A DNA stretch of 64,000 nucleotides, from the NCBI RefSeq assembly GCF_044324785.1, contig NZ_CP172127.1. One strand, 5' to 3'. The stretch is from Escherichia coli. Its GTDB lineage: Bacteria; Pseudomonadota; Gammaproteobacteria; Enterobacterales; Enterobacteriaceae. Below the pieces are notes generated by a model. That model saw only the letters and a program-made list of their open reading frames with translations, searched no databases and was not told the DNA's origin. The translations under genes were made by a program, and so were the position numbers. Numbering within the stretch: position 1 is the stretch's first letter; each line of letters opens with the position of its first letter. Of this stretch, positions 20,160-60,306 are shown one piece after another.

Positions 20160-20612
20160 CTACCAGCGTTTTGCCGCCTGCTGATCGCTCTCCCGAGCTT
20201 CAACCCAGCGGTCGCCTTCCGGCGTGGCTTCACGCTTCCAGAACGGTGCGCGGGTTTTGAGATAATCCATAATAAACTGCCCGGCTTCAAACGCACTGCT
20301 GCGATGCGCACTGGTGACACCGACAAAAACGATTTCATCTCCCGGCCATAATTCCCCGATGCGGTGAATCACCGTGACGCGCCCCAGCGGCCAGCGGTTA
20401 CGCGCTTCATCGACAATTTCTGCCAGTGCTTTTTCAGTCATCCCCGGATAGTGTTCGAGGGTTAATGCTTTGACGCTGTCGCCAAGGTTATGGTTGCGCA
20501 CCTTACCGGTAAAGGTGACTACCGCACCGTCTTCATCACGCTCCGCCAGCCACGGATACTCTTCTCCTACGCTGAATGGCTGCGGGCCGACAACAATTTT
20601 GGTTTCTGCCAT
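20160..20612 (-). CDS. moaE: Molybdopterin synthase catalytic subunit MoaE
   Basis: 150-aa ORF, last gene of moaABCDE. Confidence 0.95.
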   Translation of the reverse strand: MAETKIVVGPQPFSVGEEYPWLAERDEDGAVVTFTGKVRNHNLGDSVKALTLEHYPGMTEKALAEIVDEARNRWPLGRVTVIHRIGELWPGDEIVFVGVTSAHRSSAFEAGQFIMDYLKTRAPFWKREATPEGDRWVEARESDQQAAKRW

Positions 20613-20613
20613 C

Positions 20614-20859
20614 TTAACCTCCGGTTACCGGCGGGAAGAAAGCCACTTCGTCGCCGTCAGTCAGCGGATGGTCAAAACTCACCAGCGTCTGGTTGACGGC
20701 AGCCAGCAATTTGCCATCTTCCAGCGCCAGCGCCCAGCGATCGCTCTGCGCAGCCAGATGTTGGCGTAACGCTTCAACGGTTGGGAAATCCGCAGCCACT
20801 TCGGTTGCATCTGTTCCCACCAACTCGCGCACCTGGGCGAAAAAAAGAACTTTAATCAT
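20614..20859 (-). CDS. moaD: Molybdopterin synthase sulfur-carrier subunit MoaD
   Basis: ORF 20614..20922 trimmed to MIKVLFFAQ... (81 aa) ending in the conserved GG. Confidence 0.9.
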
Positions 20860-21337
20860 CCGCTTCCACCTTAAAGTCACCCGACTTGCCGCCGCTCTTT
20901 GCCAGCAAACGTACCGGACCAATCACCATATCTTTTTGCACCGCTTTGCACATGTCATAAATGGTCAGCGCCGCCACGGAGGCCGCGGTTAATGCTTCCA
21001 TTTCGACACCGGTTTTCCCGGTCAGGCGGCATAAGGTTTCTATACGTACCCGATTGTGCTCCGGCTCGGCCTGTAAATTGACTTCAACTTTGCTGAGCAT
21101 CAGCGGGTGACAGAGCGGGATCAGATCCCAGGTGCGTTTTGCCGCCTGAATACCGGCAATACGCGCAGTGGCAAATACGTCGCCTTTGTGGTGGCGACCA
21201 TCAATAATCATCGCCAGCGTCTCGCTGCGCATGGTGACAAAGGCTTCGGCGCGCGCTTCACGCACGGTTTCCGCTTTGGCGGAGACATCCACCATGTGCG
21301 CTTCGCCAGCGGCGTTGATATGGGTCAGTTGCGACAT
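20852..21337 (-). CDS. moaC: Cyclic pyranopterin monophosphate synthase MoaC
   Basis: 161-aa ORF; synteny. Confidence 0.95.
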
Positions 21338-21339
21338 AC

Positions 21340-21852
21340 TTATTTCTTCAAATGTGGATGGAAATTACACGGACGCGTACGGGCATCCAGCTGCGGCGCG
21401 ATGATATTTTCCCATGCGGTACGGCACGCTTTGGTCGAACCCGGCATGGCGAAAATCAGCGTTTTGTTAGCGACGCCCGCTACCGCACGAGATTGCAACG
21501 TGGAAGTGCCAATCTCTTCAAACGACAACATACGGAACACTTCACCAAAACCTTCAACTTCACGGTCGAACAACGGCAGCAATGCTTCGGGAGCCTGATC
21601 ACCTTCCGTCAGGCCAGTCCCCCCCGTAATCAACACCACTTGTACATCGTCGCTGGCGATCCACGCAGATACCTGAGCGCGAATAGCGTAGCGGTTTTCT
21701 TTCACAATGGCTTTATCGACAACGTGATGGCCCGCTTCTTGCGCCGAATCGCGCAGATAGTGACCGGAGGTATCGTCTTCTTCACCGCGACGATTAGAAA
21801 CCGTAAGAATAGCAATACGGGTCGGGATAAATTCAGTGCTTACCTGACTCAT
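21340..21852 (-). CDS. moaB: Molybdenum cofactor biosynthesis protein MoaB
   Basis: 170-aa ORF; synteny. Confidence 0.95.
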
Positions 21853-21873
21853 CTGATCTCTCCTTTTGACGTT

Positions 21874-22863
21874 TTAGCCGCCAATGTACGATAAGTTTTG
21901 CGTAATACCGGTGTTGTTTTGATGCAGGAAATGGGTCTGTTTCTTCTCCCGCAGCGCCGCTGAAATACGCGCTTCCAGCGCCTGTTGCTGGGTATCGTCT
22001 TCCAGCAGATCGCGCAGGTTAACGCCGCCTTCACCAAACAGGCAGAGATGGAGTTTACCAGTGGAGGAAACGCGCAGGCGGTTGCAAGTGGCGCAGAAGT
22101 CTTTTTCATACGGCATGATAAGGCCAATCTCTCCGGCGTAATCCGGATGACAAAAGACTTGCGCGGGACCGTCGCTGCGTTGACGTAATTGGTGGATCCA
22201 GCCGCGACGCAGTAGCTCGTCACGCAGAACCTGACCAGAGATGTGATGCTTACGGAAGAGCTCGCTGCCCTCGCCCGTTTCCATCAATTCGATGAAACGC
22301 AGCTGGATAGGGCGATGCTGGATCCAGTTCAGAAAGGTGTCGAGCTGATGATGATTAACATCACGCATCAGCACGGTATTGACTTTGACCTTCTCAAAAC
22401 CGGCCTCAAATGCAGCATCGATCCCTGCCATGACCTGGTTGAATTTATCCTGCCCGGTAATGGCATGAAACTGGCGAGCGTCAAGGCTATCAACGCTGAC
22501 GTTGATGCCAGTAAGTCCCGCATCGCGCCAGTTCGCCACATCGCGTTCCAGACGGTAACCATTGGTGGTGACCGCAATCTGGCGGATAGCGTCGTTTTCC
22601 CGCACAGCGACGATGATATCGGTAAAGTCGCGGCGTAAAGACGGCTCACCGCCTGTCAGGCGCACTTTTTCGGTGCCCAGACTGGCAAAGGCGCGCGTAA
22701 CCCGGCGAATTTCATCGACGGTAAGAAAGCCTTTATTGGTGACGCCGCTCGGTTTGTAGCCATCCGGCAGGCAGTAGGTGCAACGAAAGTTACACACATC
22801 AGTAATCGACAGGCGCAAGTAGTAAAACTTACGCGCAAATGCATCAGTCAGTTGTGAAGCCAT
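21874..22863 (-). CDS. moaA: GTP 3',8-cyclase MoaA (radical SAM)
   Basis: ORF 21874..22944 trimmed to MASQLTDAF... (329 aa); CxxxCxxC motif (CNFRCTYC). Confidence 0.95.
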
Positions 22864-22865
22864 GT

Positions 22866-23000
22866 ACACCTTTCCAGATACGGGAGGCGAAGTCATTTCT
22901 TCCTTCGCCCTGGTGGCAATCTTTACGAGCATTGTCACGGCCAAAGCACCGTATCAGTTGACCCAGGTGCAGAGGCTAGAGTGTTTAGTGGTTAAGCCGA
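22866..23000 (-). ncRNA. Moco (molybdenum cofactor) riboswitch candidate in the moaA 5' leader
   Basis: Position immediately upstream of moaA; leader contains GCCUCCC and GGAAAGG elements next to the start codon. The fold was not checked. Confidence 0.45.
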
Positions 23001-23199
23001 TACTAGCGTGTAAATGAGATTTTTACCATCCACACTTTCGCTATGTAATCATGTATATAGCGTCATGATCGTGCTATTTCGCTACAGAATAAGGGAAAAT
23101 GGCGGTTTTACTTTGATATACATCATCAGGAAGGCATAGCGTACATCGTCCTTTAGAGGTAGAAGAAAATAGTTTGTATCCTCAATATTGGCAGGTTAA

Positions 23200-24168
<969 letters not shown>

Positions 24169-57737: not shown

Positions 57738-57862
57738 TGGTGGGTCGTGCAGGATGACTCGCTTCGCTCGCCCTTCGGGCCGTCGCCGCGAGCGGCTCCG
57801 TTGTTTCGCTGCGCTCAACTCAAACCTGCTGCAGGTTCGAATCTTTGAGTATCGCAGATAGC
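57738..57862 (-). repeat. Degenerate tRNA-Lys-derived unit: 17-nt copy of the tRNA-Lys 3' end, then diverged sequence
   Basis: tggtgggtcgtgcagga is identical to the 3' end of the adjacent tRNA-Lys genes; the rest is no longer tRNA-like but keeps a T-arm-like ctgcaggttcgaatc. Confidence 0.6.
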
Positions 57863-57893
57863 AAAAAAGCGCCTTTAGGGCGCTTTTTTACAT
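57863..57893 (-). terminator. Rho-independent terminator of the lysT tRNA operon
   Basis: Hairpin gcgcctttagggcgc flanked by A/T runs, immediately 3' of the last tRNA. Confidence 0.65.
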
Positions 57894-57969
57894 TGGTGGG
57901 TCGTGCAGGATTCGAACCTGCGACCAATTGATTAAAAGTCAACTGCTCTACCAACTGAGCTAACGACCC
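57894..57969 (-). tRNA. lysQ: tRNA-Lys (UUU)
   Basis: 76-nt reverse complement matches E. coli tRNA-Lys with anticodon loop cuUUUaa and CCA end. Symbol assigned by position in the cluster. Confidence 0.93.
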
Positions 57970-58002
57970 CTTGCGGGATTATGCTGCTTTAATCATTCAG
58001 GA

Positions 58003-58078
58003 TGGTGGGTCGTGCAGGATTCGAACCTGCGACCAATTGATTAAAAGTCAACTGCTCTACCAACTGAGCTAACGACCC
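58003..58078 (-). tRNA. lysZ: tRNA-Lys (UUU)
   Basis: Identical 76-nt tRNA-Lys sequence. Confidence 0.93.
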
Positions 58079-58126
58079 ATACGGGTGTTACCTGAAAGAT
58101 TTCTACTCGGAACCAATCTTTAAAAT

Positions 58127-58224
58127 TGGTGGGTCGTGCAGGATGACTCGCTTCGCTCGCCCTACGGGCCGTTGCTGACGCAACGTTATCCTTCACGCTT
58201 AACATCTGAGTTTGATGTTAAAAT
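58127..58224 (-). repeat. Spacer unit with a 17-nt tRNA-Lys 3'-end stub and a conserved hairpin
   Basis: tggtgggtcgtgcagga followed by tgactcgcttcgctcgccctacgggccgttgctgacgcaacg... Confidence 0.6.
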
Positions 58225-58300
58225 TGGTGGGTCGTGCAGGATTCGAACCTGCGACCAATTGATTAAAAGTCAACTGCTCTACCAACTGAGCTAACGACCC
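58225..58300 (-). tRNA. lysY: tRNA-Lys (UUU)
   Basis: Identical 76-nt tRNA-Lys sequence. Confidence 0.93.
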
Positions 58301-58303
58301 GAG

Positions 58304-58379
58304 TGGTGGGTGATGACGGGATCGAACCGCCGACCCCCTCCTTGTAAGGGAGGTGCTCTCCCAGCTGAGCTAATCACCC
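58304..58379 (-). tRNA. valZ: tRNA-Val (UAC)
   Basis: Reverse complement is gggtgattagctcagctgggagagcacctcccttacaaggagggggtcggcggttcgatcccgtcatcacccacca. Confidence 0.93.
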
Positions 58380-58430
58380 GATACTGCGCTGGATACTACA
58401 AACTACTTCCACCGAACCCACCGTAATTAG

Positions 58431-58506
58431 TGGTGGGTCGTGCAGGATTCGAACCTGCGACCAATTGATTAAAAGTCAACTGCTCTACCAACTGAGCTAA
58501 CGACCC
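58431..58506 (-). tRNA. lysW: tRNA-Lys (UUU)
   Basis: Identical 76-nt tRNA-Lys sequence. Confidence 0.93.
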
Positions 58507-58508
58507 GG

Positions 58509-58584
58509 TGGTGGGTGATGACGGGATCGAACCGCCGACCCCCTCCTTGTAAGGGAGGTGCTCTCCCAGCTGAGCTAATCACCC
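58509..58584 (-). tRNA. valT: tRNA-Val (UAC)
   Basis: Identical 76-nt tRNA-Val sequence. Confidence 0.93.
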
Positions 58585-58619
58585 GATACTACGCTGGATA
58601 CTACAACTAACTATGTTAG

Positions 58620-58719
58620 TGGTGGGTCGTGCAGGATGACTCGACTTCGTCTCGCCCTTCGGGCCGTTGCTGATGCAACGTTATCCTTCACGTTTTACTA
58701 CCGCTTCCACCTTAGCGAT
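58620..58719 (-). repeat. Spacer unit with a 17-nt tRNA-Lys 3'-end stub and a conserved hairpin
   Basis: tggtgggtcgtgcagga followed by tgactcgacttcgtctcgcccttcgggccgttgctgatgcaacg...; closely similar to the unit at 58127..58224. Confidence 0.6.
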
Positions 58720-58795
58720 TGGTGGGTCGTGCAGGATTCGAACCTGCGACCAATTGATTAAAAGTCAACTGCTCTACCAACTGAGCTAACGACCC
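58720..58795 (-). tRNA. lysT: tRNA-Lys (UUU)
   Basis: Identical 76-nt tRNA-Lys sequence; first gene of the operon. Confidence 0.93.
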
Positions 58796-58959: not shown

Positions 58960-59751
58960 TTACATCGCGTTCAGACGTTTTTGCGCCTGTTTAGCGCCAT
59001 CAGTACCAGGATATTTACTGATAACCTGCTGGTATACGGCTTTCGCTTTTGCGGTGTCACCTTTGTCCTGCATGATGACGCCGACTTTAAACATCGCATC
59101 TGCAGCCTTTGGTGACTTCGGATAGTTTTTCACTACCGAAGCAAAATAGTACGCCGCATCATCTTTTTTACCCTTGTTGTAGTTTAACTGACCCAGCCAA
59201 TAATTGGCGTTTGGCAGGTAAGTTGAATCAGGGTAATTTTTGATGAAATTCTGAAATGCCACCATTGCGTCATCCTGGCGGGATTTATCCTGCACCAGCG
59301 CAATAGCTGCATTGTAATCCGTGTTTGCATCACCGCTTTTCACCGGCGCGCCAGCATTCGCAGTACCAGCATCAGCTGTCGGCGTCGTTGATGCCGCCGC
59401 ACCGCTTTGATCACCGCTGGTTGATTGCGCCGCTGCACCACCGCTGCTGAGGCTGTCGATCTGCAACAGGATCTGCTTTTGCCGCTCCACGACCTGATTC
59501 AGTTGATACTGATTTTCCTGAATCTGACCGCGCAGGGAATCAATATCGGATTGATTATCAGAGAGTTGTTGCTGGAGTTGGGTTAAAAGCTGGCTGTGAG
59601 CATTTGAAATACGCTCAAGTTGAGTGACGCGGTCTTCGACCGAGCCTGAGCCGACACTACTGATTGGTGCCTGAGCAAAAGCGGCCCAGGGGGCCGCTAT
59701 ACCAACCAGTAACGACAGACTCAATAGTTGATGTCTGAAGTTACTGCTCAT
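58960..59751 (-). CDS. cpoB: Cell division coordinator CpoB (YbgF), TPR-repeat periplasmic protein
   Basis: 263-aa ORF with signal peptide, coiled coil and TPR repeats, downstream of pal. Confidence 0.93.
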   Translation of the reverse strand: MSSNFRHQLLSLSLLVGIAAPWAAFAQAPISSVGSGSVEDRVTQLERISNAHSQLLTQLQQQLSDNQSDIDSLRGQIQENQYQLNQVVERQKQILLQIDSLSSGGAAAQSTSGDQSGAAASTTPTADAGTANAGAPVKSGDANTDYNAAIALVQDKSRQDDAMVAFQNFIKNYPDSTYLPNANYWLGQLNYNKGKKDDAAYYFASVVKNYPKSPKAADAMFKVGVIMQDKGDTAKAKAVYQQVISKYPGTDGAKQAQKRLNAM

Positions 59752-59760
59752 GCAATTCTC

Positions 59761-60306
<546 letters not shown>

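Follow-up and report, generated by a model that had tools for sequence, protein, structure and literature searches.

The molybdenum cofactor riboswitch of the moaABCDE leader in an Escherichia coli genome: position, architecture and regulatory context

The stretch of DNA analysed here (the window, 64 kb of the Escherichia coli chromosome, contig NZ_CP172127.1, assembly GCF_044324785.1) carries the complete moaABCDE operon for molybdenum cofactor (Moco) biosynthesis on its minus strand. The individual genes, each assigned both by a protein equivalog match and by RefSeq, are as follows.

20160..22863, minus strand: moaABCDE operon; five of five proteins above the NCBIfam equivalog cut-offs, RefSeq concurring
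22863-21874, minus strand: moaA
21852-21340, minus strand: moaB
21337-20852, minus strand: moaC
20859-20614, minus strand: moaD
20612-20160, minus strand: moaE

The ATG of moaA occupies 22863-22861 on the minus strand, in agreement with the RefSeq and K-12 annotations, and the 329-aa MoaA product matches the equivalog TIGR02666 at 369 bits. The neighbouring gene, ybhK/yvcK, is divergent; it lies on the plus strand and starts at 23260, leaving 396 nt between its start and the moaA ATG. The long leader described in the first-pass annotation of this DNA is thus present, and about 130 nt of the gap, counted from the proximal transcription start site (see below), would belong to the 5′ UTR. A perfect palindrome with 7-nt arms, GCGCTAC-N1-GTAGCGC, lies at 23220-23234, ~25 nt ahead of the start codon of ybhK/yvcK.

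Other RNA features are found elsewhere in the window. The CpoB/ybgF ICR RNA thermometer (RF02782) has a full-length match at 59722-59860 on the minus strand, with 142.2 bits against a gathering score of 51. Seven tRNA genes lie at 57894-58795, also on the minus strand; five are tRNA-Lys(UUU) and two are tRNA-Val(UAC), an array of the lysT-valT-lysW-valZ-lysYZQ type. RtT RNA (RF00391) matches the same strand at 57738-57863, 58127-58293 and 58620-58788, with 46.7-60.2 bits against a gathering score of 45. All three occupy spacers between the Lys/Val tRNA genes and overlap genes of the array; RtT has been described for the tyrT operon, not for a Lys/Val array.

A full-length Moco aptamer upstream of moaA

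Comparison of the whole window with Rfam 15 finds RF01055 (Molybdenum/Tungsten riboswitch aptamer, Moco RNA motif) on the minus strand, where 22995..22851 match with 103.4 bits and an E-value of 1.2e-24; the gathering score of the family is 36 bits. The match covers model positions 1-135 of 135 and is not truncated. In a permissive local scan of 22500-23400 the same family is found with an E-value of 1.7e-26, and no other family appears in that interval at E<=1. A covariance model of our own (R1, described below) gives the window copy 135 bits, and RefSeq carries a feature on the same 145 nt, labelled ‘molybdenum cofactor riboswitch’. The element can be listed as a single feature.

22851..22995, minus strand: Moco riboswitch aptamer with built-in expression platform; full RF01055 match, R1 match, RefSeq riboswitch at the same position

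The first-pass annotation had proposed a Moco riboswitch in the moaA leader, at 22864-23005 with the strand unstated, and had named a search with the Rfam Moco motif model as the check. That search, now run, returned a significant full-length match, and the proposal is borne out by the 103.4-bit score, by the presence of moaA-E downstream, by the RefSeq label and by the identity of the sequence to the K-12 RNA that has been tested experimentally. The proposed span overlaps 132 of the 145 nt, and its bounds need correction: the element runs 13 nt past the lower one and starts 10 nt inside the upper one. The minus strand holds both sequence motifs that had drawn attention to the leader, GCCUCCC at 22888-22882 and GGAAAGG at 22875-22869; GCCTCCC-N(5-12)-GGAAAGG, the pattern that combines them, is found a single time in the 64 kb and in none of 100 shuffles. 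They had been described as adjoining the ribosome-binding site, which is correct as to proximity and can be refined, in that GGAAAGG ends inside the Shine-Dalgarno sequence, and its last bases also belong to the P1 3′ strand.

The element lies where a riboswitch of this class is expected, in the 5′ UTR of Moco biosynthesis genes, on their strand and directly before moaABCDE. The moaA leader is confirmed as the known E. coli Moco riboswitch, which is labelled in RefSeq, curated in Rfam and genetically characterised on an identical sequence, and which was already known. Our main reading, to which we give a probability of about 0.9, is that the moaABCDE leader acts in cis as a translational OFF riboswitch for Moco, encoded on the minus strand.

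The family assignment has been set against the reading that the match arose by chance, that the region is mere promoter or spacer DNA, or that it is occupied by a 51-aa antisense ORF at 22862-23017 on the plus strand. Such an ORF does exist mechanically on that strand, but it is unannotated in RefSeq and in K-12. A chance resemblance is rejected because of the E-value of 1.2e-24 over the full model, the covariation among relatives (see below) and the identity to a functionally tested sequence; together with the published repression, these refute the reading, whose probability we regard as negligible.

The element is highly conserved within the species. Of 5426 complete E. coli genomes, 5424 contain a 501-nt query taken round the leader, many of them with 100% identity, and 5396 have the 145-nt aptamer at 99% identity or more. 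The leader is absent from two of the 5426 complete genomes, and two of the leader matches in the genome collection lie on plasmids, not chromosomes.

From 22994 to 22851 the window is identical to K-12 MG1655. Over the 412-nt moaA-ybhK intergenic region only three differences from that strain are seen, at 23143, 23131 and 22995. The last is a U/A polymorphism relative to K-12 at the unpaired model position 1, ~1-2 nt upstream of the proximal start site S1, while the SNPs at 23131 and 23143 lie far upstream of the aptamer and upstream of the FNR-like site discussed below. Both cloning primers of Regulski 2008 match the window exactly, at 23252-23233 (minus strand) and 22850-22869 (plus strand). 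Because the sequence and the primers are identical to those of the leader used experimentally, the window holds the reference representative of the family. K-12 coordinates quoted in what follows were converted with the moaA ATG at K-12 817044.

Architecture of the aptamer and its covariation

The structure was projected onto the sequence from the cmscan alignment with RF01055. Five paired elements, P1-P5, arranged round a central multi-stem junction, all map onto the sequence. The main structural elements, all on the minus strand, are listed in 5′ to 3′ order of the RNA, with the P1 strands first.

22979..22985, minus strand: inner P1, 5′ strand (AACAC.C), the anti-Shine-Dalgarno; cmscan projection, compensatory changes in relatives (helices 2-3)
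22865..22870, minus strand: inner P1, 3′ strand (GGUGUA); projection, overlapping the Shine-Dalgarno sequence AAGGUG (22872-22867)
22857..22860, minus strand: outer P1 extension, 3′ strand, in moaA codons 2-3; partner at 22990-22993
22940..22976, minus strand: P2 hairpin; 22976-22966 with 22950-22940, distal part 22962-22960 with 22955-22953
22913..22938, minus strand: P3 hairpin; 22938-22934 with 22917-22913, 5 bp in the Rfam model
22885..22910, minus strand: P4 hairpin; 22910-22900 with 22895-22885, GAAA tetraloop at 22899-22896
22874..22884, minus strand: P5 mini-hairpin; CC at 22884-22883 with GG at 22875-22874

The expression platform is coupled to P1, the GGUGU of the Shine-Dalgarno region being the P1 3′ strand; Regulski 2008 (PMC2408646) likewise place the ribosome-binding site within the nucleotides that form P1. 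The structured element does not end there, but takes in the start codon and reaches codons 2-4 of moaA. The moaA AUG (22861..22863) sits in an internal loop between inner and outer P1, and in the outer part 22993, 22992 and 22990 pair with 22857, 22858 and 22860, all three pairs being changed on both sides in relatives. A simple terminator scan of the leader found no intrinsic terminator.

The conserved junction blocks AGGG (before P4), GCCUCCC and GGAAAGG are exact. GCCUCCC comprises the end of the P4 3′ strand (GCCU) and the P5 5′ strand (the last CC), and GGAAAGG runs from the P5 3′ strand across an AAA junction into the P1 3′ strand, of which it supplies the first two bases. The first junction block, which follows the P1 5′ strand, reads CUCUAG against a consensus of CuC.CGAG, with one substitution, G to U. 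P3 can be extended from 5 to 8 bp with one A.C mismatch. P2 has an internal loop, UCU/UUU (22973-22971 / 22945-22943), and contains three non-canonical pairs in the E. coli copy. The position of its putative tetraloop receptor (22962-22966 / 22950-22954) reads CCUGGG/UACGG against the canonical 11-nt CCUAAG/UAUGG, a match at eight of the 11 positions as judged from sequence alone.

The projected structure was compared with relatives in an independent test. One genome per species was scanned for a 14-base pattern from the 3′ core, which returned 120 loci, ~100 of them chance matches; a script requiring an adjacent P4-GAAA hairpin kept 20. A covariance model was then seeded with three sequences, the window copy and leaders from Shewanella and Vibrio, using the projected structure. 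This model finds 21 relatives at E <= 1e-6 in addition to the single window copy; they span several phyla and include Shewanella, Vibrio, Kangiella, Psychromonas, Clostridia and Chloroflexi, among others. More than one Moco-type copy per genome was seen in Heliorestis acidaminivorans (L061, L062), an Anaerovorax MAG (L032, L033) and a Chloroflexi MAG (L118, L119).

In the resulting 22-sequence alignment, itself fitted to the model, standard pairs fill 87.4% of the pair cells, compared with 33-45% when the partners are slid by 1-3 columns. Compensatory changes on both sides occur in 31 of the 41 pairs, and none of 500 column shuffles reaches any of the observed measures. Covarying pairs are found in inner and outer P1, in P2, in P3 where it is present and in distal P4. 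Ten of the 11 pairs of proximal P2 (helix 4) covary, as do seven of the 11 in P4 (helix 7); the search pattern dictated P5, which is invariant, and the base of P4, and neither is therefore informative. The P4 loop is GAAA in all 22 sequences, and most of the 21 relatives have a CUAAG/UAUGG-like receptor. P3 is missing in ~14 of the 21 relatives, the type proposed to respond to the tungsten cofactor. Taken with these limits, the pattern of substitutions in an independent model supports helices P1-P4.

Moco-dependent repression and its outputs

Repression that depends on the Moco pathway and requires the P3 helix has been shown in the literature on the same sequence. In a lacUV5-driven translational fusion, the wild-type 149-nt leader gave >3-fold repression when moaABCDE was induced (Regulski 2008, PMC2408646). 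A mutant with P3 disrupted (M1) was derepressed and a compensatory mutant (M2) restored repression, and deletion of P3 from the E. coli RNA abolished regulation (Regulski 2008, PMC2408646). In the same study repression was lost in modC, mogA and moeA knockouts but not in a mobA knockout (Regulski 2008, PMC2408646); this pattern of dependence suggests Moco itself, rather than molybdate, MPT or bis-MGD, as the signal. The authors term the element an OFF switch (Regulski 2008, PMC2408646).

By inference, Moco itself would bind directly to the RNA. Regulski 2008 (PMC2408646) note that a binding test was prevented by the instability of the cofactor, a 2023 review cites only work on the Mg2+ pocket of the free RNA, and a 2024 paper still describes the exact regulating metabolite as unidentified. 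In the literature searched we found no report of direct Moco-RNA binding or of a ligand-bound structure, which leaves room for a different reading, in which the leader is a conserved RNA that conveys Moco feedback through a Moco-sensing protein or other intermediary rather than by binding the cofactor. A protein, CsrA, is indeed already known to bind within the aptamer. However, no Moco-sensing factor of this kind has been found since 1991-2000, and the element has a typical aptamer architecture, with a conserved multi-stem junction and a GNRA loop with a putative receptor. Its modular use with both RBS- and terminator-type platforms across phyla is hard to square with one partner shared from Proteobacteria to Clostridia and Chloroflexi, and the split between P3-containing and P3-lacking RNAs tracks molybdenum versus tungsten metabolism. 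We regard an intermediary as very unlikely, and retain the reading of a cofactor-sensing aptamer.

The features that bear on transcription and on protein binding in the leader are as follows.

22993..22994, minus strand: approximate proximal start S1, ModE-dependent; position derived from the 131-nt S1-to-start-codon stretch of Regulski and the Adams 2021 primer
22855, minus strand: abundant RNA 3′ end (Term-seq, K-12 817052); Adams 2021 supplementary tables, 2 nt beyond the outer P1 base
22901..22903, minus strand: GGA motif in distal P4, candidate CsrA site; motif count and CsrA review
22873..22875, minus strand: second candidate CsrA site; GGA motif of the P5 3′ strand and J5/1, immediately before the Shine-Dalgarno sequence
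23039..23062, no strand assigned: palindrome CGCTATGTA-N6-TATATAGCG with 9-nt arms (repeat I1), upstream of S1
23113..23126, no strand assigned: FNR-like site TTGATATACATCAT, differing from TTGAT-N4-ATCAA at one position; ~39 nt before the inferred S2

The palindrome at 23039-23062 matches the ModE consensus, and is probably the ModE operator. A ModE site upstream of S1 was reported by Regulski 2008 (PMC2408646), who also place a distal, FNR-dependent start, S2, 87 nt upstream of S1 (PMC2408646); this would put S2 at ~23080. The moaA fusion primer of Adams 2021 begins AACCACTAAAC, which corresponds to 22993, and a transcript from S1 would start at approximately the first nucleotide of the aptamer, the position of S1 being derived. 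The FNR-like site at 23113-23126 fits the FNR dependence of S2 by position only, since three FNR-like matches are found in the window against 2.4 expected by chance, a difference that is not significant. No promoter on the moaA strand came out of a simple sigma-70 scan, a method that carries no information on promoters that depend on an activator.

CsrA has been reported to bind two sites within the aptamer and to activate translation (Patterson-Fortin 2013, as summarised in a review, PMC7652899). GGA occurs exactly twice in the leader, at 22903-22901 and 22875-22873, and these motifs presumably correspond to the two reported sites.

The proposed sequence of events can be summarised as follows. 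A transcript would begin at S1 (~22993) or S2 (~23080), the two promoters being under the control of ModE-molybdate and FNR, and the first ~140 nt from S1 would fold into the P1-P5 aptamer, with the 3′ strand of P1 overlapping the Shine-Dalgarno sequence. Once Moco is made, by a signal that would need ModC, MogA and MoeA and not MobA, the folded state would be stabilised, ribosomes could not load and MoaA would not be made. CsrA, binding its two sites, would open the aptamer and activate translation. Untranslated moaA mRNA would be exposed to Rho-dependent termination within the ORF.

The last step can also be given more weight, and the main output in E. coli taken to be premature Rho-dependent transcription termination rather than a translational block as such. 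Adams 2021 report that expression of a moaA 5′UTR+ORF fusion is >2-fold higher in rhoR66S, and that a bicyclomycin-sensitive region lies inside moaA, at K-12 817336 (window ~22541, ~320 nt into the gene). The 3′ end at 22855, on the other hand, has a Rho score of 1.24 and is flagged ‘No’ in the same study, and no intrinsic terminator was found in the leader. Regulation is moreover seen in translational fusions with a constitutive promoter and only 21 nt beyond P1, and CsrA acts on the moaA leader at the level of translation. The action of Rho is most simply a consequence of the untranslated ORF, and termination as the primary output seems quite unlikely. With translational control as the preferred reading, we suggest that the ORF becomes accessible to Rho when translation is shut off, and that the 22855 end has been trimmed back to the aptamer or reflects a pause there.

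Predicted folding and relation to known systems

Nearest-neighbour folding of the E. coli sequence does not recover the consensus fold. The minimum free energy (MFE) of the leader is -42 kcal/mol (z = -1.57), compared with -26.6 kcal/mol for the consensus structure. The MFE structure keeps P3 and P4, and replaces P1, P2 and P5 by a 7-bp helix, in which the P2 5′ strand UGCACCU (22971-22965) pairs with the Shine-Dalgarno region AGGUGUA (22871-22865). Ensemble predictions leave the Shine-Dalgarno core base-paired whether the RNA folds freely, is constrained to the aptamer or has its P1 5′ strand blocked, and 22870-22866 have an unpaired probability of 0.0 once the aptamer fold is imposed. ON and OFF states cannot be told apart in the predicted ensembles.

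The alternative helix between the Shine-Dalgarno region and P2 appears in the MFE structure of two of the 22 sequences, while ~15 of the 22 pair the Shine-Dalgarno-like segment mainly with the P1 5′ strand. As it is seen in only two, this helix is lineage-specific or an artefact of the energy model, and not a feature of the family. The use of the plain MFE as evidence against a riboswitch was considered and rejected: the decisive evidence comes from the covariance model and the covariation, and nearest-neighbour energies take no account of tertiary or ligand contacts.

In-line probing by Regulski 2008 gave unexpected cleavage in P2 (PMC2408646), and more than one conformation has been reported for the Moco riboswitch in refolded RNA. 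The variant receptor and the alternative fold of the E. coli copy fit this P2 cleavage, the multiple conformations and the need for CsrA; the fit is not evidence of novelty. It could be taken further, to a three-state switch in which the E. coli apo leader is OFF by default and is opened by CsrA, with Moco choosing between two closed states; the ligand itself might be Moco, Mo-MPT or another species. The basis for such a model is that the predicted helix with P2 would hide the ribosome-binding site without P1, and that P2 of the E. coli copy is weakened and its receptor a variant. We consider it unlikely, and keep to the simpler translational OFF switch described above.

The present analysis establishes what the element is, where and on which strand it lies, how it is built and how far it is conserved, and the window adds nothing new on the Moco class. 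Its practical value lies in correct annotation, with a known cis-regulatory RNA at 22995-22851 on the minus strand that overlaps the first moaA codons. The E. coli copy also remains the reference substrate for the question of direct binding in this class.

Among known systems, the E. coli moaA representative of RF01055 (Regulski 2008, PMC2408646) is the same element, with P1-P5 including P3, GAAA on P4, the ribosome-binding site in P1 and moaABCDE downstream; there is no material difference between the K-12 moaA representative and the window copy. The P3-lacking RNAs proposed to sense the tungsten cofactor (Tuco/Wco) share the junction core, P1, P2, P4 with GAAA, and P5. In contrast with these, the window copy clearly possesses P3, with 5-8 bp, and its presence at 22938-22913 therefore assigns the element to the Moco type rather than the Tuco/Wco variant.

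The thiM TPP and btuB adenosylcobalamin riboswitches of E. coli are likewise cis-acting 5′ UTR aptamers that feedback-repress the translation of cofactor biosynthesis or transport genes, and secondary effects through Rho or RNA decay are common to these two and to the Moco element. The fold and ligand of the latter are unrelated to those of the TPP and cobalamin riboswitches, and it differs from them in that neither direct binding data nor a ligand-bound structure was found in the literature searched. Leaders activated by CsrA, such as ymdA, offer a further parallel: CsrA acting on GGA motifs likewise remodels a structure that sequesters the Shine-Dalgarno sequence, and activates translation. 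Unlike in ymdA-type leaders, the structure remodelled in the moaA leader is itself a riboswitch aptamer, which places moaABCDE under the dual control of a cofactor and a protein.
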